Source of the DNA: Psilocybe cubensis
Taxonomy: Eukaryota
Length of the DNA stretch: 64,000 nucleotides
Assembly (NCBI GenBank): GCA_017499595.2
Contig: CM039008.1
Location: 1,984,001 to 2,048,000 of the forward strand
Direction: 5' to 3'
How positions within the stretch are numbered: the stretch's first letter is position 1; every line of letters begins with the position of its first letter. The notes beneath the pieces are model-generated. The model saw only the letters and a program-made list of their open reading frames with translations. It was not told where the DNA came from and searched no databases. This document shows, one piece after another, positions 6,731 to 45,457 of this stretch. The position numbers and the translations under genes are program-made.

Positions 6731-7131
6731 TGAAAAATCTCGCAGTCGTCAATGTGTAGTGCGCGATTCATTAATAAATATGATATATTTTCAGCGTTTT
6801 GCGCAATTCTATTTATTACACTCGTTGGGTACTTAATATAGCTGGCGCCCTACCTGGCGCGCCTACACCCGACTCACCTGCAGACATTGAAAATTCTGAA
6901 TCTTTGGCCTTCCCTAGTGTGAGTCTGCAGTGAGTACTTTAATCTGTTCGTTTGCCATCGTTTGTCACCACCATCTATAAATTGATCCCACTTACACAAC
7001 TTTCCCGCAGCCTTTCTTATCACCAACCACAACCACAACCACTCACTCCCTCGCTCACTCGCTCTTACCGACTACCACCCACATCGATCTCCACACCCAC
7101 CCGCTTATTCGTTAACCGCGAATCTCTTACC

Positions 7132-13046: not shown

Positions 13047-13525
13047 GGAAGCGCGTCAACATGTGCTCCTCCAATTGGCGCATACAGATCAACTTTCTCG
13101 GTATTAGTTATATTGACAGAAGCGAGTTAAGTCTTGAAGCTCGTCGGTGCATACGGTGTTCGAGGTAACGTGCAGGAAACATGCACGATTAGGGTACATG
13201 GGTATAGTGGGAAGTACAACTCCAGGGCGCGCTGAGCGTGTTCGGATCCGGCCGGCCCGGAAGACGTGTGCCGCGGGAAGCACCTCAACACGTGCTCCTC
13301 CAATTGGCGCATACAGATCAACTTTCTCGGTATTTGCAGTTAGATTGACAGAAGCGAGTTAAGTCTTGCAGCTCGTCGGTGCATACAGTGTTCAAGGTGG
13401 CGTGCAGGAAACAGGCACGATTAGGGTACAAGGGTATAGTGGAAAGTACAACTCCTTCTGTTCAGGGCGTGCTGAGCGTGTTATGAGCGTGTTCGGATCC
13501 GGCCGGCCCGGAAGACGTGTACCGC
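13047..13525. repeat. Tandem duplication with a unit of about 229-250 bp
   Basis: TCAACA(T/C)GTGCTCCTCCAATTGGCGCATACAGATCAAC... occurs at 13056 and 13285. Both units end in GGATCCGGCCGGCCCGGAAGACGTGT. Confidence 0.85.
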
Positions 13526-14571
13526 ATACAAAGAGCTTCACGCGCGTGCAGAGCGCATAACCTGCGCGTGGATATGACCGTTCCGGGGTATGAACGTGCT
13601 CCTTCCGTGAGCTGACCCGCCTCTCTGACTCGTCTACCAGCGCCATTTCCACCAGCTCCAATGTCACTTGTGCCGTTTCATCTTCCATCAGCACCGTATC
13701 TGTTGGAAGAAGACTTGAAGCCAGTGACTCACTACGCTCTCCGCTCCAATGCTATCTGATTCACGCATGAATATGAGTGTGGGCTTGCCTGGTCGGCTGC
13801 CCGTGATATATTGAACAATTTAATAACGAATTAATCTAAATCAAATATATCAGATTCTTGCAAATCAGATTTTGCGATACAGATCCGTCCAGAGATATAC
13901 GTATTACAAACTTCAACTTACCTATGACGAAGTATGATTCAGGACCTGTATCGTGACCGGCTTAACCCCCGCAGATTGAGCAGCGACCAAATAACGTGCG
14001 TTTGAGTGGAAGATTATCGTGTTGCTCAGTTGTCGAGACCCTATCGTGTAGATTTCACCCCGACCTTGCCCTTCGACCGCAGATTCACCTGTTCATGGAA
14101 GTGAGCCGTGGGCACCGATGTCCTGGAATGATCAGAACGAAAATTTCTGCTTACCTCTCGTGAAAGGGACGCATGCGACGGGCGACGGCTTTTAAACCAG
14201 CCTCATTGAACACGATGACCGGTAGCATAGAGCGTAGTTTGACTCGTCAAGTGCGCTGAGTGTGTAACTCTGATTTCGCTGTCATTCTGGACTTTGCTTC
14301 GGAGTTCTAGCACCTAAAAAGGGGGTCAAAACCACAATAAGTTACGGTTTGAAGATCACTTAACCTCCTCGCAAATCCTCCTTGCTCACAACTCTATAAT
14401 GGTATCATTTAAGTATGCCCTGTACCAAACACGCATTACCTTTGAGGTATTTCTAATGCCTGACTTTCAGACCTGATCCCACTAGCTACTCGCAGACATT
14501 AAAACCACGTAAAGTTATATACACATTATGAGTGCGCGTAACTACAAATGCTGGCTACAACTCTAAATTTT

Positions 14572-19735: not shown

Positions 19736-20323
19736 ATGGGCATTTTATGCTTCGCTGTCACAACGCTTGTCGTAGGCACCATGTTGGTCGGCATAGGCAT
19801 TTTAACACACAATGGTTTATGGTTCTTTCTCGCGCTTTTTTCACCCATGACGTTGCTCGCTGTGTTCACTTTTTACGATTATTACACGGTTGTCTACAAC
19901 CCTTCTCCACACCTTTTAAACCTCAATAATTTGAGCTCACGCCCTGCCCCATTATTGCGCTCCGGACTGCGAAGCGAACGTCGTTATATCGTTTCCATGC
20001 CAGTATCTGTCAATACAGTCCGCAGCCTCCTCGACGGTTCTTTCGCTAATTCATATACGCCGACAACTGCCAATATTCTGGAAGCAATCGACCATATTTG
20101 GTCGCAAAACGACATAAACATCATGGAGGTATGCAGTTTTTTTACGGCGTGCTACCTTTGAATCTTAAAGTTCTTGCAGAGAATCCATGGACTTCAAAAC
20201 CCTTGTCGATATCGCTTCCTCCATCGATCGGGCCAAAATATATATCTCGTTACAGACGTCGACCCGTACGGTCCTTCCGCCGAGACCTCGCGATTGGGTC
20301 CTCGTGAATTGGAATATTACTAG
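19736..20323 (+). CDS. Small membrane-anchored protein, paralog A (2 coding exons)
   Basis: Hydrophobic N-terminus and an intron at 20129-20179. NILEAIDHIWSQNDINIME/RIHGLQNPCRY aligns with the gene at 36073. Confidence 0.7.
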
Positions 20324-20928
20324 GACAGGACTCCAACCTGTTCGTATATTTTAACTGCTTGTTCACCGATTCTGTTCTGATTACCTTGTAGTGCGGAATG
20401 TGCAAAGGCGTTCCAGCTTGGCAGTAGCATCTCGGTTATTCGTATATCTTCGCACCCAAGTTCCACTCATGCTTCTATTTTTTTTCTTCTTTCCTCAGTC
20501 TCATCTCGATACTTAGTCCCGCAATAATGTTTTTCTTGTAAATCATATTTAGTTTTGGCTCTATGAATACTTAGTGCAATAATTTTCCGTTGTGTAAAGT
20601 TCACTGCATACGCAAATAGACATCCATTCCTAGGTCGGTTTAATTGTTTTTGCGCGCGACGGAACCCATGGCCAACGCGCGCGATGTTTTGATGCCGATC
20701 AAGACTAGAAAGAGCGTTCAAACCTGGAGATGGCATGGAGATGGCCTGAGAAATAATGTTACTCGCTCAGTGACGAAAGAAAATACGCTCATAACAAGAA
20801 TTAAAGGTAAATTGATCGGAAAACAAACTTTCAAGCTACTGATAACATGGACCACGAAACCGCTATATTAGTCTAAGTAGAAGAATTTTGATATGTAACA
20901 ATTATGAAAAGTTGCGCGCCACGAAATG

Positions 20929-23900
20929 TTAGGTATAGATTGCAGGATTCACCTCGTCGTCCTCCCCTGGAAATGGTTGAGCGGCCTGGGGGTCTAGCAA
21001 TCGTAGTTCAAGGTCGGATAAAGTATTCAACCAGACCGGATTGTAGTAGTTTATGGGGAGTCTAGTTGGGGCAGGCCTCGTACTGTAATTTTGCCCTTGC
21101 CTTAACCGCTGACGGACATCAGGTTGACCTCCGGGGCGCCTACCACCATATGCAGTCGTGGCTGGCAAAGCATTATCGGCATCCGTCACGGTGTTCAGTA
21201 GCCGTGGATTTCGCCAATATAATATCCTAACGCTTCGGATTCCGCGCTCTTCAGAATCGCTCTCGTCGGAACTCATCCCATCATCTCCTAGCGTCACAAT
21301 GGTCCGCGCATGATTTGGCATGTTCGCCTGTTGAGCACTATCAACACGGGTCTCATACAGCTGCAAAGTAAAGGCCGTTAGAGCAAGGAATTCGGACTAA
21401 CTTGATAGCTTACTTTAGTCTGACGACGACGAACCCGCTTAAACCGGTCGCGTCCCTCTTTCTCCATCAACAGTCTATTTCCCGCATCCTGTTCAGTTTC
21501 ATCCCCCCGTGGCATGGCGTTGGACATGTAATCCCTTAGAGTAGTGAGACGCCGAAGGAAACATTGTTCAATTTCTTCCTCTTGCCCCCGATATTCTGGA
21601 TATTGTCGCACTAAAGAATCTGCAAAGAGGTTTGCCATGTGACGGTTCCATTGTGTGTTGACTCTGTCAAAATACAACTGGAAAGGTGTCATTGTCGGAG
21701 GATCTCGTCGTCGGCGCTCTAAACGATCCACTTCAACCTCGTCGGCGATGTGAATATTATCAAGATCGGAGTAGATTTGGCTGTCACGATGATCTGCAGG
21801 GAGATCAAGACATTTGCGCAGATGTAGGCGCACTGCTTGCTAAAAATTCTGGGCTTAAGTAAAGCATTGATATATAGGTAGTAAAAACTATACCGTCAAC
21901 TGTGTGCGGTCAATTGTACGAGGCCTAGCTGGAGCCTTCTCTTTGAAGGGAGACTTGACTTTCGTAGGCGTCTGACGTACTCTGGGTCCTCTTCCGTTTG
22001 CCAAATCATCCCGCAAGCCGTTGACACTGGCAGTCATAGTTTGTATACATTCAATCAGCATGTTATCGGTATTGGGTCGTGGCGAAGGGTGCTGATCATC
22101 GTCTGAAGGCATATTGGGAGCCGTAACGGTCGAAGTCGGATGCCTTGGCGTGTTGGCCATCGGAGGAGCCGGCTGAGCAGTGGCAGGAGATTTTGCGCGC
22201 TGGGCACTGGCACCAGAGCGTTCTGCGTGCCGAGCTTGATAGGCAGCGAGTTGAGGATTTGTACTGGCACCAGAGCGATTTGCATGACGCACTTGATAGG
22301 CAGCGAGTTGAGGATTTGCAGTTGAGGAGTTGGGAGGGACAGATGTGTTAGACGTTCGCACTTCGGAGGCCGAATGTCTTGGCGTGGTTGGCGTGGTAGG
22401 CATCGCTGGAACTGTACGATCAACGACAGGACTGACAGTAGGGCGGGTCGCATGACGAGCTTGATAGGCAGCACGGTAAGGATCATTCACCGCAGAGGTA
22501 GCAGAGGTAGGCGCTATGGTAGAGTTTGAAGCGGGAAGGCGCCCTAGCCGTTGCATAGCAGCGGCAAAGTATCGCTCTGTTGCTGACTGACCTGTAGGAG
22601 GGATAGGGGTCGCGCGGTTAGAATCCCTGCGTCTTTGAGATGGTGGAATTGTGGTATATCTTGTAGGAAAAAAACCCGGAATTATATATCGCCGAGGTGA
22701 TGCTGATCTTGGAACAGGTCTTTGGTGTGTTGTCCCATCTTCCATATGTTCGTCGTCTGAGTCCAGCGGGGGTGACGAATTGGGAGCTCGAGGCGAATTC
22801 CGGAGCGGAGAACTATCTACCATTTCGTCATCTTCATCCCTCGAGGCTTCATTTTGAGGAGGATTTGACGGTGGAACAGCTGATTGTCCGCGCTGGGCAA
22901 TCTAAGATACCTCGTTAGGATCAACAAGATCACCACATACATTATTGCGTACTCGTGAATGTATAGAAAACCCGGCATTGCGCTTGTTGATCCCAATCTA
23001 GAAGACATCGAGGTAAATTATTAGGTACTACGTACGAATGGATTGTTTAACATACCAGCCTCCGCCGGGCATCCAACCTCCTAATTTCCGTTGGTTCATA
23101 ATCATCCTCAGTATTGTGAGTTCTGTTCTTCATAACTGAATTAATGCGAGCCTGCAAAACCTTGGAGGTGTGATCAGAATCGAAGATTGACAAGGAGGGG
23201 AACAGATTTACTTCATTCTTAATTCGTTCGTTCTTTAATATGTCCTCCAACGCACTTGTCGTGTTACCGAATTCGGTATTGCTTGATTCCAGCTCGTTCA
23301 AGCGACCTTGATTTGCCTGACATTGTTGTGCCAGATTGGAAACTTGGAGACGCAGGCTGGACTAATAATGATACCTTATCAGTCGGATTTGTTGAGGCAT
23401 AGGCTAAACTAGAATCCTACCACCGTATCCTCGTAAGTGGCCTTCATTTGATTCATCTCGGCCTGTGCTCTGTATCAGCAACAATGCCATGATTAAAAAT
23501 TGACAGACAAACCATTCGGTTAGTTTGCTCTGCTTTCAGAGCGTTCTCGGCGTCCGCTGATTTTTGTTGATGGAGATCCATTTGGGACTTGAGATCGCGT
23601 TCGAGCGCATGATACTGTTTCTGCGACTCCTCTCGCTGGTTTTGTAATTGTGCTGTAAGGCGGGTTATCTCGTTTGACGCAACACGCAACCGTTCATTGA
23701 GGCCCGTGATAGTTTGTTGATCTTCCACACGTGTCGTGTTTGCGCGCTCTAGCTGTTGTTGGAGAGCATTGATTTGGTCCTGTGCGTGTGCTGCACTTTG
23801 CGATGTGTTGAGATTTGCAATTGTCGAATTCGCGTCCCGGAGCTGTTGCTGAAGAGAGTTAATTTGTTCCTGTGCAAGGGCCGCCGTATTTTGTGAGGCA

Positions 23901-25825
23901 CTTAAACTTTCAATCCTCGAATTTGCTGCCTGGAGCTGCTGCTGTAACGTTGCTGCTGCACGTTGCGATGCGTTGAGATTTTCAATTGTCGAATTCGCGT
24001 CCCGGAGCTGTTGCTGAAGAGAGTTAATTTGTTCCTGTGCAAGGGCCGCCGTATTTTGTGAGGCACTTAAATCTTCAATCCTCGAATTTGCTTGCTGGAG
24101 CTGCTGCTGTAACGTTGCTGCTGCACGTTGCGATGCGTTGAGATTTTCAATTGTCGAATTCGCGTCCCGGAGCTGTTGCTGAAGAGAGCTAATTTGTTCC
24201 TGTGCAAGGGCCGCTGTATTTTGTGAGGCACTTAAATCTTCAATCCTCGAATTTGCTTGCTGGAGCTGCCGCTGTAACGTACTGACTTCGCTGGATTTCT
24301 CTTGCTGCAGACAAGCGATGTCGTTTTCTAAATCTGAGATTTGTGCGAAGAGTTGTTGACCTCGCGAAGCAACCGCAGCTTCGAGATCGGCATTCGTTTT
24401 CTCGTGACGCTCCTGAGCTTCAAGACGCTGGCGGTCGTATGCTTTAGATAAGGACTCTGCACGCCGAAGTTTGATCAACGCTGACGAGAGGTCGCCTTGT
24501 TGAGTTTTAACAGTTTCTTCAAGCCCTTTGGAGCTCTCCTTCTCCGTCCGCATTGCCTTCGACAGCTTGGTATACTGCGAACGTACAGCCTCTACCTCCT
24601 TTTTGCTCCTTTCTGCTTTCTTTTCAGCATTTTTGATGGCATTCTTCGACTTAGTTAGCTGTACGATGGTGGTAAATACGCAAATCTTGCAACATAGGAA
24701 ATAAATTAACATACTTCCGCTCGTTCATCATCAATGATTTTCTTGAGCACCTCTTCCCTCTGCTTGATCTAAAAAAGCAATGAATACATAAATGACAAGA
24801 AAAGTAGATTTTGGGTAACGTGCCTGTTGCTTGCTCAGCTCTGCGATGTCGACGTCTTTCTGTTCGATGACTTGGACTTTGGTGGTATGGTCTTCCGGTG
24901 CAGCTCGTCGTTTCTTCGCCTTAGACTGGTTAGACTGGTTCGGATCACTTCTAGTGAAATTGAACAAATTTCCAGACAAAACGGGTATAAAAAACCGTGG
25001 AAATGTAGAGGTGCTACTGGGATTTGACGACGTAGGTAGTGTAGGATCAATGTCCATAGACGTTTCAGGGTTCGGAGGAGGATTAGTGTTGGCGGAAGAC
25101 TCGTTCTGTCGGAAATGTCCAGGAAAAAGCACGTCGGAAGACCCAATCCGTGGGATATGTCCAGCGGATGGCCGAGAGACACTATTCGCAATGGAGGATC
25201 CTTGGGCACCCCGAACATCTGTAGCAAACCGGAAAGGCGCCTGATCGATCGAACTAGCGCCGTTGGTGGGCTGAGAAACAGAGGGAGCAACACGATCTGG
25301 GACGGAAGATCCTTGGGCTCCCTGGTCATCTGCAGCAAGCCGGGGTGGTAAGAGAGTAACCGCATTTACAGGAGCTTGATTGGTCAAACTAGCGCCATTG
25401 CTGGGCTGAGAAACAGAGGGAGCAACACGATTTGGGACTGAAGATCCTTGGGCTCCCTGGTCATCTGCAGCAAGCCGGGGTGGTAAGAGAATAACCGCAT
25501 TTACAGGAACCTGATTGGTCAAACTAGCGCCATTGGTGGGCTGAGAAACAGAGGGAGCAATGGAGGCTGTACGTGCACCGTGTTCATCTGCGGCAGGTCC
25601 GGGTGGAGGAATTGGAAAAGAAACCGCTACATTAGAAGGCGTAGCGTTGGACAAAGTAGCTCCAGCTCCTCCTTGTTCTACTTGTTCTAGACGTTCCGTC
25701 GGGTAATCAGGTGATGTGTCCATTGAGGAGGGTTCTTGATCAGTGGAAGATCCAGTTGCCGAAGGAGTAAGTAAGGCCACGATCCTCTCCTTGAGGGGCA
25801 ACGTTTCCCGTCGGGTGGACGACAT
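20929..25825 (-). CDS. Large (~1,400 aa) multi-exon protein: repeats, coiled coil and a C-terminal LGDDGMSSDES...WR...LPINYY..WL domain; candidate TnpA-like accessory protein
   Basis: Consecutive minus-strand ORFs (24731, 23453, 23047, 21888, 21378, 20929) are separated by short GT-AG introns. The TnpA role is an inference. Confidence 0.7.
23800..24280 (-). repeat. 165-bp (55-aa) near-identical coding tandem repeat, about 3 copies
   Basis: TTGTCGAATTCGCGTCCCGG occurs at 23821, 23986 and 24151. It encodes a heptad Gln-rich coiled coil. Confidence 0.9.
25250..25560 (-). repeat. 135-bp (45-aa) coding tandem repeat, about 2.3 copies or more
   Basis: CTGAGAAACAGAGGGAGCAA occurs at 25271, 25406 and 25541. 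Confidence 0.9.
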
Positions 25826-26029
25826 GGGTATGATACTGAGGATGCCTGCCTTCCCGAGGTCACCTTTTGTACACTCAGATGGGGGCTCTTTATTCAAAAA
25901 CTCTTTGTGAATACCGGGAATAAGGAAACAAAGAGGGACTCACCTAAAAGATAGCAGCCAAACCGTATTCGCGCCTCATACTTTCCTCCCTAATTACCGC
26001 CACATCCACCTCCATACTTTTTCGCCGAC

Positions 26030-26595
26030 ATGGTATCATCGTTGATGACCTTCCGGTCGACTACAAGGGTGAGATGAAATCGAAGTTTATATGAATAACG
26101 ACTCACTTCGACCAAGGATCTCCATATGACCCTTAATGCCAGATATTATGCGGTCGATGCAAACCGTGCTGTAACGAAGAAAATACACACTCTTGCAAAC
26201 GCGAGCGGGAGGAGTCCTAGACTGGACTTATTGATGGGCGGGAAATCGCTGCAGCCACACATACATGACGGCGTGGTGTCGATCGTTAACAAAGGGCGGA
26301 CTACACGCTTTCATATCTTCGTTAAGAATCACAAGTTTCTGCCTCGCAACAAATCTCTTAGACGCTGGGGAAATGCACGATGGAGAGGGGATGTCGTCGT
26401 GTTCCGCAAAGGTCTAAGTCTGGACCTCGTCAATTTCACCATACGGGATGGGAAGTTGGCTGACCACGCAGTGAAGAGGTGAGCTGGCGATACTGAGAGT
26501 ATAGAAGAACGCTAACAGTACCTAGGTTTGTGGAAACTGTTCGCCAACAGCCAAGGTTCCGCATCCCAAAGGACCTCTCCTTCACAATGCCCTGA
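26030..26595 (+). CDS. Small basic hypothetical protein (~155 aa, 3 exons)
   Basis: ATG at 26030 and two GT-AG introns. The core reads FHIFVKNHKFLPRN...WRGDVVVFRKG...VNFTIRD..LADHAVKRF. Confidence 0.65.
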
Positions 26596-27195
26596 GCGAC
26601 TTCTGCTCTATCTGAGCGTCTTCTGCTCTGTTTCCTGTTTTTTCTGTTTCCTGTCTTATTTTGGCGGTTCTCCATCGTTCCGACTTTCGTTCGTTTGTAA
26701 ACTAATTTGTACACACATTTACGATCTACTGTAAATATATTTACTACTACTTACGCACTGAGCGACATGGTGTGTTATGGGTGGAAAGAGAACGAAACCG
26801 TGAGAAAATGCCGACCACGCCATGATGAACCCCCGGAATTTTCAAGCCGCGTTGCCGAGGAGAATACCGCACGCGATAATCGGCTTGAGCGGCTTGAAAT
26901 TCCGAGGGGTACATATTGAGCTACTCAACATATTCTCACGCTTTCTCTTTTCCTCAACGTTAACGACAGCCTTGAGTAGCAGAACCATAGGTACGTTTTT
27001 AAACAATGTTGGTATGAAGTTAGCTAGAGGTGATGTACGTGAATAACAAAAAAAACAAAAATACATGAGTTGAACGAGTCTCCACCTACGAGCACAATAA
27101 GAAAATATGATGCGATCGTGTCTTAATAACGACCAGCTGATGACCACACAGCACAAGCAGTGTAGCGCAGACCAGAGTGTTTCGCGAAAATCGCA

Positions 27196-29917
27196 ATGAA
27201 GAAGGTATGTCATGATTCCTTGATATCTTAATCCGTTTAGGTTAGTAACATTATTACAGATAGATCCCAGAATCCGCCAGTTCCTGGACACCGAAGCTCA
27301 AGTTGACGACGAAATTTCTGAGGAAGACGAACAGACGGGATCCGGAGAAATAGATAGAGAAGGTGAATATTATACTTCAAACACATTTACCCTACTAATA
27401 TAACCCTTGCCATTGAGATGGATTCATCGACGATGATACACCCCCGGATGTTGGGCATTCCGTTCTACCGACCCAGTTATCAGTTCATAGGCATACCGAG
27501 GGAGCATTAGAGCGCTTGATTTCGCGCATCGAGTCCAGAATCAATGCCGCGGGAGATGGGGGATTCGCCATTCCTGAAGATCCAGACGATACACTCCATG
27601 ACAATGGTTTGTTGTACATACCTAGGGCGGATGATTATCCACTGTGGCGGGTTGAATGTAGAGTGCGTACCCTACCGTTATTGACACTGGGCGTTCTAAA
27701 CTGAATGGATCTTCGCAGGTTGGTATTGAAGAACAGGCTGTGATGTCTCTGCTCAGCACAGTCTCGGAAGTACATCAGGTTCGTTCCGCATTCACTCGAG
27801 GATCAACACAGGGCAGTATCTATATCGAATGTAAAATGAACCAAGCCCTCGTCGACCTTCTTCTACGGACACCAGGTGTACTGCGTAACGGCTTGGGTAT
27901 CAAACGACAGCTCATCGACTCTTCAGAGTATAGTCAAGTGCTTGGGATGAGGGATGGTCCCGTGGACGTCGGTGCATGGGTAGTCATCAAGAAAGGCTTG
28001 TACAAGGGAGACGTTGGCGTGGTTTCACAAAAAAGTTTTCAACATGCCCGTATTCTCCTCATTCCTCGGCTACATACGACCCCACAGAACCCCCTCAAGC
28101 GAAAATCATCGACTGTTAAGCCGGCTGCTAAGCTCTTCGATCCGGATCACTTTCGACAGCTTTTCCCAACCGACGTGCAGAGCCGTGGGCCTGATTGCTA
28201 CTGCTTTCGCGATATGGACTTCGAACAAGGGCTTCTGGCCCAAAATTTGGACCACCGTTCATTCACAGTTAACGTCAAGGACATACCCCATGACTTCTAC
28301 ACCATGTTTAGAATGAGCCAACACCCAGCAGTTAATCGCTCGCATATGCCACGCCCGCGCGAATGGACTTTGAAAGAAGGCGACGCGGTTCTCATTTGCA
28401 GCACCCCTTCAACCTCTACGTCGTTTTTTGCCCCAGCTATCTTGAAGGTTATGGATACCTACTATGCGGAAGTCCTCGAAATAGGGACACACGGTGTACC
28501 TCTAGCCGACAACCCAACAAAACGTGTGCCGTGGCAAGAAATCAGGAAGGATGTTAAAATCGGACAACATGTTTGTGTACGGGGTGGACATCATACTGGC
28601 AAGACAGGCTGGGTAGTTGCTCTCAAAGATGATCGAGTTCATTTTGTCAGCAAGAAGTTTGAAGGTGAAATACCTACTTATTTTAGGGATGGTGACGAGG
28701 TCATTGAAGTGAGGTCTCCATTTTGTTATTCGTTCTACTTTTGCAACTCTATTGGCTTACTTATCTCTTGACAGTCAACAGAGGTTTTTGTCAACTTTGT
28801 AGACATTGCAAAGGAGCCCGTCGTGCTGCACCACAAGCACGAGCCAGAACAAACTGCCATAATCCCTTATGTGCGCCAGCCAGAATCTGGTCCCCTTCCC
28901 AAGACGCCTCCACATCCATGGTGTGGAGTAAAAGTGAAGATATCTAAGCAGCACCATCCTCGAAAAGGCGAATACGGAGTAATTCAGGATGTCAAGGAAA
29001 ATCTCGATGACAATACTATAACGTTGCACATGCAGTTGACGCGATACGACCCGAATGCCCCATTTCACAGAATATCAGTCCGTTACGACGACGTCGTTGA
29101 ATTTGCGTAAGCGCATTCCATCTCACACAGGTCATGCAACACTCATTATTTTCAACGTAGATCTTCTCTTGAGCTCGTCCTGTTCCTTGATCCCGGTGAG
29201 GGTCATATTCGACCTACCCCAACGCAAACTTTGTCTACGCCGCAACCCGAGCAAGGTCATGATACATCCGCCCATCACCCTTATCTGATGGAGAGGCCGT
29301 CTGGTAGTGCAACGCCCCTTCCGACACCAGCACCAAATAATTTGTCTTCTCCACCTAGTCCAGCTTGGGACCCCTCTTCGAGAACTCCGTTATCTGATTC
29401 CGTGGCGTCTGATCCATTGTGGATGCCTCCAGCACCACCCCCACATGTCCTCTTGAACCCAAAACTCGTGGGAGTTAAACTGAATGCTGTAGTTGACGGC
29501 GGAGATTTTTCTAAGCAGCTAATTGCAGTGTCTATCGAGCTTCATGGCAACGAGGTTGTTCTCCGACATAAAAAATATCACACATGGATTTCATTAGAAC
29601 CCCGTTGGGTCACCCCTAAATACCCTCATCCAATTCACGACAACAACCTTCTCGTCGTCATAAAAGGAGATCACAGCGGCAAATACGTTCGTCGCATTCA
29701 TCACCGACTAGATCAGCTAACCAAGAAAATCAACATTATTCTATCCGTTGTGGCCAGGACCGTCGGCTCGCCTGATTCCTTAACTGGCGAGCAATTGGAA
29801 CTCGATCCGCAGTTTCTTTGTACTGTTCCCGAAACAAAGAAAGAAAGAGAATTGAACTGGCGTGTCATGAATACAACGCGAGCTATGCATAATCGCGGAC
29901 CTAGTCAAAATCAGTAG
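27196..29917 (+). CDS. Divergent SPT5-like transcription elongation factor (~811 aa, 6 exons)
   Basis: Acidic FLDTEAQVDDE/GFIDD; NGN domain LWRVECRVG...VRSAFTRGSTQGSIYIE; KOW1 GAWVVIKKGLYKGDVG...LLIPRL; KOW IGQHVCVRGGHHTGKTGWV; KOW HPRKGEYGVIQDV; CTR-like ATP..SPAWDPSSRTP; terminal KOW LVVIKGDHSGK. The exons splice in frame. Confidence 0.85.
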
Positions 29918-30172
29918 TGCAATGTAACTAGTCCATCGTGTACCAACTTTTTGCGGATTTTATGTCTCTTAATTTGCGTACGTATTTCTTGGGTGTTTTT
30001 TCGGTGTTTTTTTTGTGTAGCGACATGTGCCAAATTTAATAAAGGCAAAGATGTTTATCATCAAGTACATGCGCAAAGGCCCAAATGGGCGTGTCGTTAA
30101 ACAAAGGCAAGGTATATACATATAACACACGACGCGATACGGGCAGTTAGTTTTCCTCCACCAATTCTACTC

Positions 30173-31894
30173 ATGTCGAACCGCAGGACAAGAAAAACAA
30201 TCCACGATGCCTTGAGGAACAGGCAGAGTCGCACCACCAATATCAATCATCATCAAGATGCGTCACCTGCGCCAGGGCGTAATTCTGCAGAAACCTTGGA
30301 CGTAAGTTTCGATTTGGTGCTTAGAGCGATGACTGACTGAGATTATCTCTCAGCTCGACGAGCTGCGGCCCTTTGGAAACGCGTTGACCCAAAGCGAGGT
30401 GGGTTACGGCTGCCTGTATATTTTCTGCATGATTTGGCAAGATGTTAACGCGAATGGCAGGATCTGAATATCATTTCAATCCGCAATACTAATCGCCGAA
30501 GCCACAGAAATCTCCATTTACTCCCAGACAAAGCCAATCCTAGTCCCCGACGCCAAAGAAGCGTCCATGTGATGCCAGACAGAGCCAGGACGCCCCAAAT
30601 TGCTTTGGAGCACTCCGACATCAGCCTTGTATTTTAATTTCGATTGTCTTTCATACGGCAAAACCTGACACGGTTCTTAGCCCGATGATGCACCTATGGA
30701 TAGTATCAGACCAGTAAGCATACATTGTTGTTGTCCTTAAACGATCTCACATTTTTCGCGCCACAACCAGGATGTTCTTTCTGCTGTCGTCCCCGAGATG
30801 GTTAACCATACCCGCGAACCTGACGGAAATGTAAATCATGTCCGCATCCGTGAGCTGGAGGTAGAACTAGTAAAATGTCAAGAGCAGCTAGCGAGAGCTT
30901 CGGATCGAAACAATGAATTGGAATCAACGCTGATAGAAAATCAACGCACATTACAGAATCTTTCTGACACAATTACTGTAGTAAGTTGTATTTGTCCTAG
31001 TTCAACATCATACCTTCCTAACATCTGGGAACATTTGAAAGCATAAGAATAATGAAGATAACTTGCAAAAGCTGAATGACTCTTTGGGTGACAAACTGTC
31101 GGAACGGGAGAAAACAAACGGCGAACTTGAGTCGGTTCGTCATTATATTTAACATATTACCGTATAAAGTTGACCAAGTTGACGGACTACCTTTGCAGAG
31201 GAACAAAGTGTTAACGAGTAGGGCAGAACTATTGACTACAAGAGTAAAGGAATTCAAGAACGAAAACACGCGTCTTCAAAAGGTAAGGTTTCCATCTTGT
31301 CATTCAGGCAGTGTGCTACTAATATCAAGACTGCAGTCAATCGATAACATGGAGGCGAAAGTCGAAGAACGGGAATATCTTGACATTTATATAAAGGTGT
31401 GTTTGATTCTTAAATTCCAGTTGTATCCTTACACAAGCGTTCAAACTTTAGAATCTCCGCCATTGTTATGAGAAATGTCAATCTGACTTGAAAAAATCGC
31501 ATGCAGTGAGTCATGTCGAAATATTTTATGTGCTCTCTGAATGTTTCATAGGAGTCAGCCGAGCTGCAGCGTCAAGTTGAAGCACTTCGCAAGTTATGCG
31601 ATGTCGTCGTCCAAAATACGACTTGCCCAATATGCACTTGCCACATAGATATGCCGGTAATGTATGTTTTTCCAGCGAATCATTGCAATACCGAAGATAA
31701 TGCTCATTACTAATATCTAAAACAGGTTGACTTGCGGTCACTTTTTTTGTTCGAGCTGCCTTGAAGCATGGGACAATAAGAAGGGATGGAAGGGGGGCTG
31801 CCCATATTGCCGCATGGACATTAGCCGAAGGATTACTGCACTGCCAGTTTTCAACCAAATTCTGGACGCGGTTCCAGTCGAATACCGATCTTAA
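30173..31894 (+). CDS. Coiled-coil protein with a C-terminal C3HC4 RING finger (putative E3 ubiquitin ligase), many small exons
   Basis: The spliced C-terminus reads CPICTCHIDMPVMLTCGHFFCSSCLEAW...GCPYCR, with an intron at 31662-31725. Upstream exons have heptad character (IRELEVELVKCQEQL). Confidence 0.75.
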
Positions 31895-32022
31895 CGATTT
31901 TTATATATTGTGAAATGGATATCATGCGTGCTTCTCCTTCCCGAGAAGCTATTTCTTAATACTCCCGATCTCTGTGACTATAAAGTAGCATCAATTTTGG
32001 TACTAGACGTTATCATACCATC

Positions 32023-35000
32023 ATGCCCCCTGCAATAGGCGATCGACTCTGCATATGTAAAGTCCACGGGTGCTACGATAATGTGGACCCAGGAACTAAT
32101 CGAAGGGGGAAATTACTTAAACCCAGGGACTTCAGAGCACATCAGCGACGCCAACAAGAAGAAGACCTAAAGCAACAGCAACGCGCCTTGGATGTACAAT
32201 CAAAAACTCTCGCTAAGCATGATCAAGCCATTGAAGAAGCGTTGAGTCGTCTATCACTGTCGGACCCTCAATCAATTCCATCGTTCACATCCCAATTATC
32301 TGATTCCGATTCTCGCTTCGAAACGAAAAAGAGAGTGGCAGCTCAGCTTGGTGGCCTGTTGGATGAAACAGACGTACACAAACGAGGGATAGAAGCTCTG
32401 CAAGTTAATCCCGGACCTCTCACCGACTCTGCATTACTTGGAGGACTGGATAAGTGCTCCTCAGCATATGGATTCATCGAAAGATCTGCGACAGTGCTGG
32501 CCACAGCCAAACATTCGGCGATCCGAAAGGATCCTTCTATCAAAACACTCATCGATAATGCGCAAATGCAGCTCGGCCTACTTCAGCATGATCTCAAGCG
32601 AATCGAAACTCTCTATAGGAAGGAGTTTGGGAAACGCGAAACAGTTGCCGCCTCGACTCCTATGTACAATTCAGGTAACCGAAAGTTCATTCGATATGGT
32701 TCTAGGCTAATATTTATGGAAAAGGACGACATTTTAAGCCCATCCTGGAATCCGCAACTACCATCTTGCAGTTGGTTGCATTCATGGTCGTGTCGGTCCA
32801 AGTTATTTTTGGCGTTCCTCGACGGGGTTGCCATTGGATTTTTCAAATTTCCGAATTTATCATTGAACAAACAGCCTTCAGTGCCTTGGGCTCTTCCAGT
32901 CACTCTACCCTTCCGAACAAAATCAAACTTCTCCTCTCCAAATTCCCTCGCGACGTTCGTACGGCGACGAGCTACTTCAATATCGATGCGGAAAGCACTG
33001 TTTATGCAGCATGCCCCAAGTGTCACGAAATTTATCCGCCAAAATTGGAGTCTGGCGTTCCCATATACCCAGAGAAGTGTCGTGCACGTAGAAGGCCTCA
33101 CAAGCAAGGTGGCCCTGTCAGGTCCTGCAGAGAATTGCTAGTTCGCCCAAAACAGTTTGGGAAAGCCACCATTAACGCTCCAATAAAGCCATACATTGCC
33201 TTCAGCTTCCATGACTGGATGGCCAATCTCTTATCACGCCGCAATTATGAGAAGACGATGGATTCAGCATGGGATAGAATGCAAGAAAACGAAGGCGATA
33301 TCGAGGATATTTTCCAGGCGACATGCATCAAAAACTTCAAAGGACACGACAAAAGGACGCATTTCGGCAAAATCGGCGACAAGGACTCCGGGAGATACTT
33401 ATTTTCTCTTGGATTCGATTTCTTCAACCCTCTGAGGAACTTGGCAGCTGGGAAAAAGGTGTCAATTGGCGTCATCGCGCTGATATGTCTCAATCTTCCT
33501 ATCGATATCCGCTACAAACCTGAGAATATATTCCTAGCGGGTATTATCCCTGGCCCTTCTGAGCCAAGTCTGGACGCCCTTAACCCGTACTTGCGGCCTT
33601 TGGTCGACGCACTACTGCTATTCTGGGATGGAGTTCGCTTTTCAAAGACGGCTCTTTACGAGCTTGGGCGATGTATATATTGCGCTATCATTGCTATTAT
33701 CGCCGATCTTCCTGCTGCTCGAAAAATCGGAGGTTTTTCCTCACATAGTCACGAATTCTTCTGTTCAGTTTGTACTTGCAGCAAAACCAAGAACACTTAC
33801 AACGACATCGACTATACGACCTGGACATGGCGCACCAACGAGTCCTGTAGAAATCGTTCGGAAAAATATCGCAATGCACAAACTCAGGACCTGGCGGATA
33901 GATCCTTTGACTTGTCAGGACTTCGCTCCTCGGAGTTGCTTCGTTTGCCGTACTACGACGCAACCAAGCATCTTCCCATAGATCCAATGCACAACCTATT
34001 TTTGGGTTTGGTAAAGGAACACTTCCAAAATATCTTGGGATGCAAGAAGATTCCGATGGGTGGTCTTCCCGAATCTGCGGCCCATGCAGGCCGTCTATTT
34101 GCTCACGATGCCAATAATTTGGACCCCGATCGCTTCAACGTCCAGCAAAAAGCGAGCATCAGACGCTTGGAAGGATGGCTTAAGGAGCCCTTTCTCCATG
34201 GATCGGACCTACAGTCAACGATTGACAAACATGCCAAACATTGGGCTGGGAAGGGATGCCACCTGGTCTCCTTGATCTACATTGGCAGAGGACTTGGATG
34301 CATCCCGAGCACTGTTACCGAGAACGGGAGGGATTCCCGTGATCCTGATAAGAGGTATCACAAGCCGGAGCTGGCAAAACTAATAGTGGAATGGGTTCGT
34401 TGCACGCCTTTTCTCAAGATCATAAATCTGATCAATTTTACCGTTGTCTTCGCTTTTTCCTTAGCGATCAAGACAGCCAATAGTACTACCGGCCTCCGTC
34501 ACCTCTCCTGGACTAGCCGGCAGGCAGGGATATATATTGACCTCGCAGGAAATGGACGAATTGCGACGAGATATCAGCGCGATAGTGCAACCATCATGGG
34601 CAACCACTATTCCTATATCAATCTCTTCCTCTGGACCGAAGTTAAAGTCGGATCAATGGCGAGCGGCGGGATCTGTTTACCTCCCAATTACTCTCATACG
34701 CTTATGGTCCTCAGATGGGACAGACACTACCAGCCAGGAACGTCGAGATCTCCTCAACATGACGATGGAGTTATTCCAAGCCGTCTCCGTCATCACTTCG
34801 CGGACAACCTCTGCTGCACATGAAAGGTTGTATCTTGGGCATATGCTCACGTACCGTCAAAATTTGGCACGTTTATTTCCTGACTACAATTGCCATCCCA
34901 ATCACCACATGGCAATGCATCTTGGGGAATTCCTTGCGGCGTATGGGCCTGTTCATGGATGGTGGACGTTCCCTTTCGAGCGTATGATTGGGACACTGCA

Positions 35001-35772
35001 ACAAATACATACTAATTACCATCCTGGTAAGCCGTCAATCATAGAACTCTCATGCTCTACCTAACAATACGTGATAGGCGAGTATGAGGCTACGATTGGA
35101 GAATCGTGGCATAGAAGAAGCAATCTTAGGGCACTGTTTTCCAAGGTCACCTGCCCTCCTATCATTGCCAAGTGCGCTTCAATGTTCGAGAGCATCGTCC
35201 AACCTCAGAATCAAAATTTCCTTGCAAACTACGCTACGGACAAGGTGCAGGCGGTTGGAACCGACGATCAAGATACAGATATCATCCTTGACAATAACCT
35301 GTATCGCGACAGACTGGAGGTTGAACTTCCCGACAACATTCTCAATGCATTTACAAACTTCTTCCAAGGCAGCGCTGAGCTGGTATCTACTCGTCATATT
35401 CGTGCAAACTTAATAAATCGATATACATCGGGCCGCATTTCATACACCAGTTCTTCCATCCATGAAGGAAACAGTCAGATTCTGACACCCTCGGGTCCGT
35501 ATTGCATCCAGAACATTGTAGTGTTCCGCAAGCCACTTCTATACGACGATGTCTGGCTTGTCGCAAAACCATTTCGCGCTGCAAAAATCAAGGTCGACCC
35601 CTATATGCGGTATCAACATCTTAGAGCAAAAATATGGAGCAACGAATTGGAGGAATTCATTGAGGTCATTCCCTTGTCTATGGTTGATACTCATTTTTCC
35701 AAGTGCGTCATTCAATGGGAAGGGAAAGAAGTTGCCGTTTGTGTAAGTTTATCTCGAGTTGTATCCGTTTAA
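32023..35772 (+). CDS. CACTA/En-Spm TnpD-type DDE transposase (Transposase_21 + DUF4218-like), about 1,192 aa, 4 exons
   Basis: ACPKC zinc motif; FSLGFDFFNP...CLNLPIDIRYKPENIFLAGIIPGP; ADLPAARK; IDPMHNLFLG; HPNHHMAMHL...GPVHGWWTFPFERMIG. Exons 32023-32674, 32725-34394, 34465-35026 and 35078-35772 join in frame without stops. Confidence 0.92.
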
Positions 35773-36072
35773 TAGATTTGTATGTACGATTACGATTTTA
35801 CGACCTTTACGTGAGATCAGATCTACCCATAACTTACACTGCAACAGCTCGCTTTAATTCACTCACTGGTCGCGTAGGAGGCGCGTCAGACTCGCATTTG
35901 AGTAACGGCCAGTTCCGTGGGGTACTGACCCGCTTAAACGGCCCGAATCGTTTACCTCTTTGTTTCTAATGAATCGTGTTATTTAGGCCTTTGTTCTTTA
36001 TGTTAAAAGCCTCAAAGACGCTTAAAAGGACCAACGCGAAGTCAACCTCCAACTCATTCCACCCCTACCACC

Positions 36073-36588: not shown

Positions 36589-38949
36589 GCAAGAGTCCAG
36601 CGGGTTCGTATTTCATAACTAATTATTCACTGATTTATTCTGACTACTGTGCCTTTGTAGTGCAGAATGTGCAGAACGTTTACTCGATCCAGTGTAGCAG
36701 AAGCATCGTTCTGTTATTCGTTCATCTTCACGCCCATCCTCCACTCATGGTCTCTTTTAATATCTCTCCTTCTTGTTCTTTTGGTTCTCTTTATCTCGAT
36801 TCTTAGAACCTCGATAATTTTTTTTTCGTATAATTCATGTTAACGCCAGTGATTTTAAGTTTTAATGCCATTTCCTATGCAAAACATACTAGTACGCAAA
36901 TACTTGAGATTCATTCCCAAGTCGGTTTCATTGTTTATACCTGCAAGAGCATATTGAAACGATGAGCGCGCGATGATCATAGAAGGGACGATTTTCATGC
37001 CGCTCAAGCCGAGAAAGAGCGTGCAAATATGGATCAAAGACGGCAGCAAAAACACACCGGAAAGACACTATGCCGTATTGAAAAACCGACGGCATGAAAA
37101 TCCTTGTCACTTATCAAGTGCACTGAAGTGACTGTGACAACTTTCCGCTCTTAGCATGAACCCACACTCAGGCACGATGGTATCACCTAGGATGAAGTAC
37201 GATACGTAGTGTAGAATGATTAATACAACACACCTTGCGCAGTATTATAGGACATTTGAACCTTTTAGAATGTAGTTAATGTCCAACAAATGAGTATATG
37301 AAGTAGAGCGCTCCCTTGTATTGTCAGCGTGTAGCATACGCTTTGGAGTTGGAAAACATGAAGAGTACTACTGCACGAAAGTCAAGTGAGTGTAATTTTC
37401 CAAGCAGAAGCATTTTCCGTTTTAACCTATAGCTACGATAACCCAGCTACGACACCCCGAAGCAAAAGTTGGGGATGACAGGCCAGCAGTCTCTCAGAGA
37501 CTGCTGGCCTGTGTTTCGTGTTTCGACAGCCGACCCTGTCTCCCTGTATCTCAACCTCTGCAAGCTGAGTAGCACTAGGCCACTTTGGTAAGCAATTTGT
37601 CTTTGGAAGCATTTCACTCTCAGGCTTATTAGAATGTTAGTGGCTCGATGTGTTGTCCAGCATGTCGACTCTTCGACCGCCAAAGGTTTACAATTGTGGT
37701 AGGAACTCTCTGGGGAGAAGAACATGGATGACGTCGACGTGTCGCGAATCATGCACGAGGAGGCGAGGATTGAAATTGCTCCTCCCATGCACCCCGGAGC
37801 AGCTCCTCTTTTCCCTCCCATCTACCACCAGGAACAGCTCAGACAGCTGGAGCAGCTCTACTTCTTCAGCAGGCGAGCAGCGTACTGTTTCATCCGTCCC
37901 TTTCACGAGTGTAAGCAAATAATTTTTGTTCTGATCACTACACATCAATTAACACCTAGTAACACAGTTTCCGGATATTGCTACCCACAGCCCAGTCCCA
38001 TGGGCAGGTGAATCTGCGGTCGAAGGGCGAGGTCGTGTTCGAAGCCGCCTCGAACTACCTTAAGACAACCATTGACGGGATGGACACGGGATGAGTGTGT
38101 TACGGAACACATCGTCGACTCGACAGCTCGCGATGGTTCTGGGAGTGATAAGGTGGGTGTACAGAACACTTCAACACTGGCATAGCATGGTCAAGTCCTT
38201 CTCTCCAATCAGAATTCAAGCGATTTATCATTGAGGCCAGCTTCGTTCGTGTTGTGGCCATACAAAAGTCGTACGAACATAACGACGAAATAACGATGCT
38301 GCCTCATTACGAGTATTGACCTTTTCTTGATGGCGATTCCAATGTACTAATTCTTCCTGGGTTCATGACAGAAGCCAACGACGCTGGTGTTTTCAACCTA
38401 TACACCGACACTATCTGCGCGCGCCCTGAAATTCCATATTACCGTGTAACACACACCTCGCACCATTGGTACCCGACAAAGAATCTACCTGAACATCCTC
38501 CAAGAAGTAAATAAGTTCAAAAGATCGAGACGAAGAGACGAAGATCGACACTTCTGATGACATGGAGGAACATGAAGGTCCCCAGTTTGACCTATCATCT
38601 ATGGAATTCTGCTAGCATATCTCTCAGGTCTCAAGATAAGTCGTACTTCACACGTTCATCTGCGGTACTGGGTTGTGACAAGACTAAGGGACAACTCTAC
38701 AGGACCCAAGACCTACAGACGTCCATTCTCTGGCCTCGTTCGTATCTGGGCTGGCACGATCCACGCGCTGGGTGCTCCTGGTCTTCCGGGCCGGCTGGAT
38801 CCGAACACGCTCATAACACGCTCAGCGTGCGCCGAACAGGAGACTTGTACCCTGATGCGCTCATCTGTATTATCCGGCCTTATCCAGCGGGACTTTCACA
38901 TATCCTACGTAGCCGCATTGGGACTGTTGCCTGAACGCCATTTCCAACA

Positions 38950-43400: not shown

Positions 43401-43658
43401 GGTTGTAGCCCCAGGAGAATTTGTCCGCGCTGCCGTAGCCAGTTGGGCCTGCAAGCGACGTTAGATGGTGCAAGAAGTACATTGTGAACTGTATCAGTTC
43501 TGTAATGGCTTGAAAATCATTGAATTTACGACAGTATAGCATGTACAATATGAAACAGTAGACTACGTATTAGGTACATTGTGGGGTATGAAATTGATTG
43601 CGTATATACAGCAGACCGAAAATCGAAAGCAAGACAACAAGAAAACAATTAGAAAAGC

Positions 43659-45182
43659 TGACGGGGAGTAGGGTAGTGGGTGAGTCCCCCAAGAAGTTAT
43701 AAAGACGCTGGAATGACGCTGAGAACGCCTGCTAGGTGCGGAAGGGGGAAACCTCGTATTTCTTGCAGATTGCGAGATACTCGTTCCTCGACGGATACTT
43801 GGCGCGAATCTGCGCCTCGATAGCGATGTCGTTCAGCCGGTGCCTATGGTCGAGAGCGAATCGGTCGATGTTGATATTGTGCGCTTCGGGCGTCATAGGC
43901 CGGGTGAGTGCGCGTTTGTTGTCGAGAAGGGTATGAAGATCCATTATTTCTTGACGAATCCGAAGGAGGTCCTCGATTTCCTCGAAGTCGGCGTTGCAGT
44001 CAGCGTCGGTGGTGCGTAAATTCTGGGCTTCGACATCCGTGATTTGAGCGCCTAACGAAACTGGGATGAGCAGATTCAAAAAAAAAAAAAATTCAACGAT
44101 GCGTACGATTGCGACCTCTGACCATCACCGGGGTATCGCTACGCTCTTCGATATAACGAAAGACCTCCCCACAAACCGACCCCACATACGCGGATACGCG
44201 CTCCGTTATCCAACATCCCGACGCGATGCTGTGCTTCAACCCATACTTGAAGCCTACGATGGCCGAAACGACTTGAGAGATGAGTGCAGCCATGGTAAGA
44301 GATTCGCGGTTAACGAATAAGCGGGTGGGTGTGGAGATCGATGTGGGTGGTAGTCGGTAAGAGCGAGTGAGCGAGGGAGTGAGTGGTTGTGGTTGTGGTT
44401 GGTGATAAGAAAGGCTGCGGGAAAGTTGTGTAAGTGGGATCAATTTATAGATGGTGGTGACAAACGATGGCAAACGAACAGATTAAAGTACTCACTGCAG
44501 ACTCACACTAGGGAAGGCCAAAGATTCAGAATTTTCAATGTCTGCAGGTGAGTCGGGTGTAGGCGCGCCAGGTAGGGCGCCAGCTATATTAAGTACCCAA
44601 CGAGTGTAATAAATAGAATTGCGCAAAACGCTGAAAATATATCATATTTATTAATGAATCGCGCACTACACATTGACGACTGCGAGATTTTTCAAAGGGC
44701 AGCGAGTCGCCAGAACGACGCATGCCATCGTGTTATCATCGTCTGCGAGTCGACATCGCGCCAAAAATGCGAATTCTTCGCGCGCTTGTCGACTCGCTCA
44801 GCGAGTCGATTACTGTAAGTTCAGGTGTATGTTTAACTTACAGCACTTACTTACAGGAATTGTGTAAGTATGACATACACAATTTGTTTTCTTTGTGTGT
44901 ATGTTTTACTTACACAAGTGCTGTTTGTATGACTTACAGCAATTGTGTATATTATACTAACACCGGACAAAAAGAAATTGTGTAATCTCGGTGTTTATTC
45001 TATTTACAGTCTACTTACAGCAATTGTGTTTGGTCGGCATACAGCCACCAAACACAATATGTCTTTGCCGACTGTTTGTTTTTCATACACGTGTGCTGTA
45101 TGTCGAACTTACAGCGAAACTTACATAAGACATGTAAGTTTTCTGCTGTATGTTTAACTTACAGCGGTCGGCGCCCGCAGTG
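43659..45182 (-). repeat. Right terminal inverted repeat (1,524 bp), with a degenerate extension to about 43529
   Basis: Reverse complement of 6243-7766, ending in GGCGCCCGCAGTG. Confidence 0.95.
43732..44293 (-). CDS. Inverted-repeat-encoded hypothetical protein (right copy)
   Basis: Mirror of 7132-7693 with identical translations. Confidence 0.6.
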
Positions 45183-45457
45183 TTATGAGTCCGAATTCTC
45201 GCTTGATTACTTTATGTCACCCGAGGCACATCTGATGACGTTAAGTTAAAGCAGTGACCTAACTTTCACCTGAGGTGCCTATCATTTTCGTATCATCCTG
45301 TCAATCTTTCACACAAAACTGGAGTAGAAACTATATAAAGACATGACTCAGCTGCGTGACTCGAGCATGGACTTGAATTTTCAGGTCGCTAAGTGCTCAA
45401 AAGGTAGAAATAGGGCGGGTGTTGAAGCGATGACTATAGCAAATACCCTCTTCAATC

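Follow-up and report, generated by a model that had tools for sequence, protein, structure and literature searches.

A 64,000-nt stretch of the Psilocybe cubensis genome (assembly GCA_017499595.2, contig CM039008.1, positions 1,984,001 to 2,048,000 of the forward strand; hereafter the window, in whose numbering coordinates are given) contains an SPT5-like gene, SPT5L, inside a CACTA/EnSpm-type transposon. SPT5L is an intact, maintained SPT5 paralog and a standing accessory gene of CACTA-superfamily transposons (Transposase_21/EnSpm and Plavaka) in Agaricales; it is neither a host housekeeping gene nor a decaying capture. To our knowledge, no transcription factor other than SPT5/NusG is conserved across all domains of life. 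Eukaryotic SPT5 is treated as a host housekeeping gene, and the lineage-specific SPT5 paralogs that we know of, in plants and ciliates, are host genes only. The gene, its domains and its carrier are placed in the window as follows, with confidence of the structural model given as the predicted local distance difference test (pLDDT):

27196-29917, + strand: SPT5L, SPT5-like gene, 6 exons, 811 aa
27196-27204, 27260-27362, 27418-27662, 27719-28708, 28775-29106 and 29161-29917, + strand: the SPT5L exons (splice model)
27636-27946, + strand: NGN domain, residues 111-195, split by the intron 27663-27718 (Pfam; pLDDT 88-98)
29357-29389, + strand: CTR-like unit SPAWDPSSRTP, residues 626-636, in a disordered linker (pLDDT <50)
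29447-29896, + strand: C-terminal tandem of KOW6-KOW7-like barrels with a terminal helix, residues 656-805 (pLDDT 93-98)
6243-45182, no strand: carrier element, CACTA/EnSpm-type, 38,940 bp, delimited by its terminal inverted repeats (TIRs), termini and transposase
6243-7771, + strand: left TIR, 1,529 nt
43654-45182, - strand: right TIR, 1,529 nt

The splice model joins the six exons across five introns of 55, 55, 56, 66 and 54 nt, each running from GT to AG, into a coding sequence of 2436 nt that encodes 811 aa and a stop in an intact frame. Its translation is letter-identical to an annotated protein (P0153, with two GenBank accessions) that carries the NCBI name 'Transcription elongation factor SPT5 [Psilocybe cubensis]', and the six-exon, ~811-aa gene proposed in a first-pass annotation of this DNA is thus reproduced exactly. 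Compared with PDB sequences, the protein gives 19 matches at E<=1, 17 of which are SPT5 chains; the best is 8qsz_Y (E 1.1e-27, residues 7-448), and the plant paralog RDM3/KTF1 is also matched (8hyj_W, E 1.2e-7). A match to GAPDH at the same threshold was judged to be due to chance.

From the N terminus onward the protein has an acidic motif, then NGN, KOW1-3 and one more KOW, next a disordered linker that bears a single unit resembling those of the C-terminal repeat region (CTR), and last a KOW6-7-like tandem. Pfam Spt5-NGN (PF03439) scores 28.6 bits over residues 113-193 (cut-off 22.4). The generic KOW family reaches 24.9 bits with exon 4 alone and 20.9 bits with the whole protein (cut-off 22.3), and KOW5_SPT5 falls slightly under its cut-off in the whole protein. 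The HMMER search that the first-pass annotation had proposed therefore places both NGN and KOW above threshold, KOW on exon 4 alone. A profile comparison by hhalign of 9 SPT5L-family members with 10 canonical SPT5s gives a probability of 100 and an E value of 7.5e-47, aligning residues 7-440 with residues 92-537 of the host SPT5, that is, the acidic motif, NGN, KOW1, KOW2 and KOW3. Conservation in a 24-sequence SPT5L alignment extends along the whole length, the C-terminal tandem included.

An AlphaFold model built on a 150-row alignment has a mean pLDDT of 79, with confident domains at 111-195 (NGN), ~200-330, ~340-375, ~385-460 and ~500-560, disorder at 575-650, barrels at 666-712 and 724-781, and a terminal helix. 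Its best Foldseek matches are W and Z chains (SPT5) of elongation complexes of RNA polymerase II (Pol II) with Spt4/5 (DSIF), with E values down to 2.3e-25; against isolated domains it matches the KOW1-linker (4ytk, TMt 0.84) and KOW2-KOW3 (4ytl, TMt 0.78). Exon 6 modelled separately (pLDDT 80) finds human DSIF KOW6-KOW7 as its best match (5ohq, E 2.8e-4, TMt 0.66); the KOW6-7 assignment of the tandem is by fold alone, with no sequence match, and 0/4 conserved columns of canonical SPT5 in this part are common to the family. Core NGN residues are kept by most of 26 family members (G121 in 24, E123 in 23, Y154 in 24 and E156 in 20), and the Glu of the IYxE motif, which we take to be the Spt4-contact residue in yeast, is present in 20/26.

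Measured against the host SPT5, SPT5L has lost the KOWx-KOW4 module and most of the CTR array, and apparently most of the acidic N-terminus. Neither PF23037 nor PF23291 is matched in SPT5L, as against 85 and 91 bits in the host protein; none of 23 canonical conserved columns of the KOWx-KOW4 region is common to the 26 family members, and only one barrel stands between KOW3 and the linker in the AlphaFold model. The KOW5 region may correspond to the barrel at ~500-560, which has weak BLAST similarity to host KOW5 (E 0.10) and retains 4/8 canonical conserved columns in at least half of the members. At the N-terminus, exon 2 scores 17.2 bits for the acidic Spt5_N family, under the cut-off of 24.2; 21-23/26 members retain F, A and V in the FLDxEAxV motif. 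The CTR repeats of the host protein are TPAWNASSRTPNPY, and the SPT5L unit SPAWDPSSRTP resembles the host unit TPAWNASSRTP. There is one such unit in SPT5L and two in its relative P0004, compared with three TPAWNxSSRTPNPY repeats in the host SPT5, and residues A628, W629, D630, P631 and S632 of the unit are invariant across 9 SPT5L members. The linker contains this PAW unit and one PLW, and lacks a long WG/GW Argonaute-hook region. The first-pass annotation had described a full SPT5 architecture; the NGN-KOW-CTR-KOW order holds but the statement that every module is present does not, given the missing KOWx-KOW4. It was right about the short acidic N-terminus, which is ~40 residues long in SPT5L and ~180 in the host protein, and about a CTR cut to about one PAW/RTP unit.

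The species has a separate canonical SPT5 (P0251, 1136 aa, likewise named 'Transcription elongation factor SPT5 [Psilocybe cubensis]'), which came to light when a distant canonical SPT5 (P0177) was the query; the 24-sequence SPT5L family profile, run as a word-index search, did not reach it. It matches NGN (80.9 bits), KOWx, KOW4, KOW2, KOW5, KOW1, Spt5_N and generic KOW above the Pfam cut-offs, with CTD slightly under (24.1 bits, cut-off 25.4). SPT5L is 25% identical to it over SPT5L residues 103-457 (E 8e-26), in keeping with the strong divergence claimed at first, and is therefore not the only SPT5 of the genome. In a tree of 26 SPT5L members and 13 canonical SPT5s, three of them fungal (737 columns, LG+G4, quick search), the SPT5L members group in a single clade (SH-aLRT 100) whose stem is long (0.8) and which lies beside the three basidiomycete canonical SPT5s (93); its tip branches are several-fold longer than theirs. 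The phylogeny called for in the first-pass annotation thus sets SPT5L apart from canonical SPT5s as a monophyletic group. We infer a single origin of the family from a fungal SPT5, followed by diversification together with the elements that carry it.

Among annotated proteins, which is what the copy counts cover, one P. cubensis assembly has at least 11 family members with GenBank (KAH) accessions. Five are at least 90% identical to SPT5L (P0001, P0153 twice and P0155 twice), five belong to a second type ~43% identical to it, and the last is P0003. With these 11 proteins and a separate canonical gene, the family is far from single-copy. Exhaustive HMMER searching with the exon 4 sequence puts the family at 622 clusters (50% identity) for E<=1e-3, falling to 223 for E<=1e-10 and 62 for E<=1e-30. 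Its named members belong to Psilocybe, Panaeolus, Pholiota, Flammula, Dendrothele, Cyclocybe and Lentinula, and full length is kept between lineages that share 25-45% identity over the whole protein. These proteins are already public in databases under automatic SPT5 names, which inflate the number of SPT5s counted in mushroom genomes.

The claim that the gene is borne by a transposon is upheld by its position between inverted arms of 1,529 nt that are 100% complementary and have CACTG termini. Both ends of the carrier start with CACTGCGGGCGCC, followed by 25-nt subterminal repeats, and the subterminal repeat family D2 is present in both arms. Inner inverted repeats of 33-68 nt that are 77-97% complementary lie well inside the TIRs, at 13233-14175 and 37891-38842, so the arms of the element have more in common than the 1.5-kb TIR.

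Association with transposases was also found beyond the window, in soil metagenome contigs from JGI, which yielded 139 SPT5L relatives, 80 loci of which were kept. The 20 largest flanking open reading frames (ORFs), from 13 loci, were scanned with Pfam, and the transposases found were then used as queries on all 80 loci. Five of the 20 were Transposase_21 (L002, L023, L026, L032, L055), four Plavaka (L014, L049, L063, L078), three Copia parts and one Helitron; seven had no family. A Transposase_21 or Plavaka gene adjoins SPT5L in 7/8 loci with a total flank of 8 kb or more and in 3/11 with 4-8 kb, compared with 0/16 with 2-4 kb and 0/45 with <2 kb. Three arrangements recur. The transposase may lie 2-3.5 kb downstream in the same orientation, which is how the window is arranged; it may be convergent, 0.7 kb downstream; or it may be divergent and upstream. 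In L002, SPT5L and the transposase lie together between imperfect inverted repeats of ~0.5 kb (3501-4018 and 20092-20654). The association proposed in the first-pass annotation thus recurs in the well-flanked loci, and its partners are wider than Transposase_21, including Plavaka. Elsewhere, a Helitron-like helicase/Rep ORF or Copia polyproteins adjoin SPT5L homologs (L014 10355-12169, - strand; L054 1592-5935, - strand; L004 911-5593, + strand).

The gene is under selective constraint. The ratio of nonsynonymous to synonymous substitution rates (dN/dS) was estimated by the Nei-Gojobori method with codons aligned through tblastn, so only alignable segments were compared and values are biased downward. 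It is <1 in 318 of 320 pairs with dS 0.01-1.2, pairs that are not independent of each other. Among 14 pairs that share no locus it ranges from 0.28 to 0.71, with bootstrap upper limits <=0.96 in 14/14. For the pair L002/L023, SPT5L has a dN/dS of 0.39 (0.30-0.51) and the adjacent transposase 0.28 (0.21-0.39). Pooled by domain, values are 0.32 for KOW6-7, 0.39 for NGN, 0.39 for KOW1, 0.53 for the KOW at ~500-570, 0.56 for KOW2-3, 0.60 for the linker and 0.94 for the N-terminal tail. The first-pass annotation had held that the gene is maintained and had proposed this comparison, and the upper confidence limits below 1 in every independent pair bear it out. It had also named three findings that would count against its proposal (SPT5L as the only SPT5 of the genome, neutral dN/dS, and no association with transposases), none of which was observed.

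The other features of the element and its surroundings are:

26030-26479, + strand: upstream 134-aa ORF (P0156), annotated as a separate gene (tblastn of P0156, P0155 and P0002)
26794-26945, no strand: weak palindrome, a 158-nt self-complementary alignment of 68% identity, ~250 nt upstream of the SPT5L start codon
30101-31894, + strand: coiled-coil/RING-finger gene between SPT5L and the transposase
31984-35772, + strand: transposase gene region with overlapping ORFs 31984-33141, 32706-34823, 34465-35064 and 35065-35772

Transposase_21 (PF02992) scores 47.6 bits in ORF 32706-34823 (cut-off 28.6), and DUF4218 scores 20.2 bits, under its cut-off, in ORF 34465-35064. The transposase had been placed ~2 kb downstream of SPT5L on the same strand, and it does start ~2.07 kb on; the two genes are not direct neighbours, as the coiled-coil/RING-finger gene intervenes. 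This gene has a zf-C3HC4_3 RING finger of 29.5 bits in ORF 31721-31894 (cut-off 27), and its coiled-coil ORFs are at 30741-31046 and 31076-31471. A gene model of P. cyanescens (P0002) continues into a coiled-coil stretch beyond its SPT5L part.

The upstream ORF has a homolog in P. cyanescens with 50% identity, and the gene models P0155 and P0002 fuse an ORF of this kind to SPT5L. No Pfam family matched it, and the Atlas clusters closest to it, with 70-128 members, are hypothetical proteins from Basidiomycota. A role as a substitute for Spt4 is unsupported: complex prediction with the SPT5L NGN (residues 100-200) scored 0.01 and gave no verdict, and the ORF has no cysteines for a zinc finger. 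Further upstream, two long minus-strand ORFs occupy 23453-25939. One is coiled-coil with three 165-nt tandem repeats (23789-24283) and the other is Ser/Pro-rich with 135-nt repeats (25235-25560); their Pfam matches are weak and below cut-off (Tropomyosin and similar). Ten further long ORFs of the element gave weak coiled-coil-type matches under cut-off in one case and none in nine, and no TET/JBP domain was found in the window ORFs scanned with Pfam.

Contigs of two other strains (X1 and X2) cover 25900-36000 unspliced, with 15 substitutions relative to the window; two further runs presumed to be RNA (X4 and X5) gave no contig over this stretch, which says nothing against expression of the gene. 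The G>A or C>T transitions among them fall at CpG in 10/11 cases, compared with 23% expected (binomial p 4e-6), which appears to be a signature of 5-methylcytosine deamination and makes the element look methylated. CpG depletion is absent, with an observed/expected ratio of ~1.0 both inside and outside the element, which points to a young copy. Within the SPT5L coding sequence, 4/5 strain changes alter the protein (E15K, D341N, R425Q and T581M).

Of the 23 metagenome loci with >900 nt of upstream sequence, 13 have a large self-complementary palindrome (96-866 nt) at 0.1-0.8 kb before the SPT5L coding match; none was found in 43 downstream control regions. The palindromes share stretches that are 70-84% similar across SPT5L lineages. 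Examples are, in coordinates of the loci:

L002 9276-9466; L032 8993-9237; L023 1288-1491; L055 4133-4902: upstream palindromes
L005 1031-1861; L012 3418-4146; L025 1216-1767: other upstream palindromes

The L055 palindrome sits between the divergent transposase and SPT5L genes. Possible roles of such a palindrome are those of a bidirectional promoter, a recruitment site and a source of hairpin RNA, and the weak palindrome of the window may be a decayed counterpart of these strong ones.

How SPT5L would serve the element can be proposed from its architecture. NGN and KOW1 are the parts of canonical SPT5 that clamp DNA on Pol II. With this DNA clamp conserved, SPT5L may be seated on the clamp of the host Pol II, probably with host Spt4 and in place of host SPT5. 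The altered C-terminal half, with KOWx-KOW4 and the CTR array gone and the tandem constrained, would then recruit different partners. The element could thereby have its own genes transcribed in a sustained or silencing-resistant way or, alternatively, obtain access of its transposition machinery to transcribing chromatin; a decoy effect is another conceivable benefit. Among these benefits we rank silencing-resistant transcription highest, because related fungal transposons carry TET/JBP genes and the element looks methylated. The function would accordingly be one of element-specific Pol II elongation, anti-silencing or targeting. We think it probable, with real room for doubt, that SPT5L is a selectively maintained transposon accessory gene that acts as the element's own SPT5-type factor through a Pol II mechanism of this kind. 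A bolder version, which we regard as doubtful, is a 'eukaryotic RfaH': a transposon-encoded Pol II factor that would replace host SPT5 on the element and make transcription resist termination linked to methylation or heterochromatin, recruited perhaps by the upstream palindrome. If true, a universal NusG/Spt5 factor would be a weapon in the conflict between eukaryotic transposons and their hosts, like the paralogs of bacterial mobile elements.

Several observations weigh against this reading. The loss of KOWx-KOW4 would equally fit an SPT5L that is no longer an elongation factor. At the carrier, no 3-bp target-site duplication is seen, as the flanks TTG (6240-6242) and TTA (45183-45185) agree in 2/3 bases; the mismatch may reflect mutation or recombination between copies. 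The co-location counts are without a random-gene control and come from transposon-rich contigs, and the Copia and Helitron genes nearby also mark SPT5L neighbourhoods as transposon-rich. When the window genes were compared with the 80 metagenome loci by tblastn, the transposase matched 1/80 and the RING and upstream ORFs 0/80, so the partner genes of SPT5L vary. Constraint is moderate at a dN/dS of 0.3-0.7, and close pairs lie near 0.7-0.9. Stop codons interrupt the aligned coding parts in 23/80 loci, and many SPT5L copies are therefore dead. Stops together with high dN/dS in close pairs are the usual pattern of transposon genes, with selection between lineages and decay after insertion.

Other explanations share part of this evidence. 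SPT5L on elongating Pol II might act as a tether in integration or excision, holding the transposase or the element ends through its KOW6-7-like tandem, so that insertions would be steered to transcribed open chromatin or excision would be coupled to transcription. That the tandem is the most constrained domain (dN/dS 0.32) and yet shares 0/4 canonical conserved columns points to a family-specific partner, and the association of SPT5L with two related transposase families in three gene arrangements would also suit a tether. The transposases beside SPT5L differ, however, being either Transposase_21 or Plavaka, which argues against a single fixed protein-protein interface, and we consider both the tether and its proposed outcomes unlikely.

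SPT5L could instead be a decoy or dominant-negative protein that sits on Pol II or, by way of its one W-containing CTR unit, binds a silencing factor, and that would not support the usual recruitment; it would then block co-transcriptional silencing by small RNA or methylation and not promote elongation. Such a protein might look like SPT5L, in which KOWx-KOW4 and the CTR array are gone but the PAWDPSSRTP unit is almost invariant, and the CpG bias of the strain transitions (10/11) marks the element as an apparent target of methylation. The linker that holds the W motif nevertheless evolves fast overall (dN/dS 0.60), and a lone W motif bears little resemblance to the WG/GW arrays of known Argonaute hooks; we hold this explanation to be very unlikely.

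The paralogs might also be host genes that act against transposons and are merely located in transposon-rich regions. Specialised SPT5 paralogs with roles in non-coding transcription or silencing are reported in plants and ciliates (PMC5416832, PMC8934623), SPT5L matches plant RDM3 (E 1.2e-7), and Copia and Helitron genes are found nearby as well. A host-side silencing factor is nevertheless highly improbable: SPT5L lies inside the TIRs of the window element and inside inverted repeats in L002, identical or at least 90% identical copies occupy 5 annotated loci, stops occur in 23/80 loci, the branches are fast and long compared with those of the canonical gene, and the family groups with fungal SPT5 and not with a silencing paralog.

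Least probable of all is a functionless passenger, a host SPT5 captured once whose apparent constraint would be an artefact of comparing only young copies or conserved parts: capture of host gene fragments by CACTA elements is known, close pairs reach a dN/dS of 0.7-0.9 and the alignments are limited to tblastn-alignable parts, but the full-length gene is kept across lineages that are 25-45% identical over the whole protein, dN/dS is <1 in 14/14 independent pairs, and its spread from 0.32-0.39 in NGN, KOW1 and KOW6-7 to 0.94 in the tail is unexpected under neutral decay.

A maintained accessory gene with a putative SPT5-type function can be compared with several known systems. In the literature searched, no link of Spt5, NGN or KOW with fungal transposons was found, though supplements could list such an ORF, and a search for transposon-encoded Spt5 paralogs returned plant and ciliate host paralogs only; Spt5, KOW and NGN do not occur in the main text of PMC12730594 and PMC5751038. 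Compared with the canonical SPT5 of P. cubensis, SPT5L has the same module order from FLDxEAxV to the KOW6-7-like tandem, the core NGN residues and the fold seen in Pol II complexes. It differs in its length (811 versus 1136 aa), 25% identity, lack of KOWx-KOW4, one CTR unit in place of at least three and short acidic N-terminus, and it is multi-copy, transposon-borne and fast-evolving.

Plant SPT5L/KTF1 and ciliate Spt5m are reported to be lineage-specific SPT5 paralogs for transposon-related or non-coding transcription (PMC5416832, PMC8934623). Both are host genes, whereas the transposon family groups with fungal canonical SPT5. The likeness to KTF1 (RDM3) lies in its being an SPT5 paralog with a sequence match to SPT5L (8hyj_W, E 1.2e-7). 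KTF1 has a long WG/GW Argonaute-hook region, in contrast to the one W unit of the mushroom protein.

A parallel in carriers is seen with TET/JBP dioxygenase genes, which are reported on Kyakuja, Zisupton, EnSpm, Plavaka and Helitron transposons of fungi, with EnSpm and Plavaka among those of Agaricales; a role in escaping silencing by countering methylation is proposed for them (Kojima 2025, PMC12730594). There too a host-derived chromatin or epigenetic factor is an extra gene of the same kinds of transposon, but the protein and the chemistry are different. In maize, the CACTA element En/Spm encodes TnpA, a non-transposase protein that binds subterminal repeats and is linked to transcription and to the reversal of element methylation. 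SPT5L is similarly a second, non-transposase protein of a CACTA element with subterminal repeats, but TnpA, the subterminal-repeat binder, has no sequence or fold relation to it.

The finding of a large, selectively maintained SPT5 clade on CACTA-type transposons would mean that a core part of the Pol II elongation machinery can be carried by eukaryotic transposons, and it suggests that these transposons bring with them a factor that acts on the host transcription machinery. It would also provide a tractable system for the influence of elongation factors on transposon silencing and for the roles of KOWx-KOW4, the CTR array and KOW6-7. SPT5L would thus stand in parallel both to the TET/JBP genes of fungal transposons and to the NusG paralogs of bacterial mobile elements. 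Among the latter are RfaH, ActX, TaA and LoaP, several of which are found on plasmids and other mobile elements. RfaH differs in being bacterial, with two domains, recruitment by ops DNA and a fold-switching KOW, whereas SPT5L has a candidate palindrome only; what they have in common is a paralog of a universal factor that resides on, or serves, mobile or accessory DNA and presumably acts on the transcription of its own segment.

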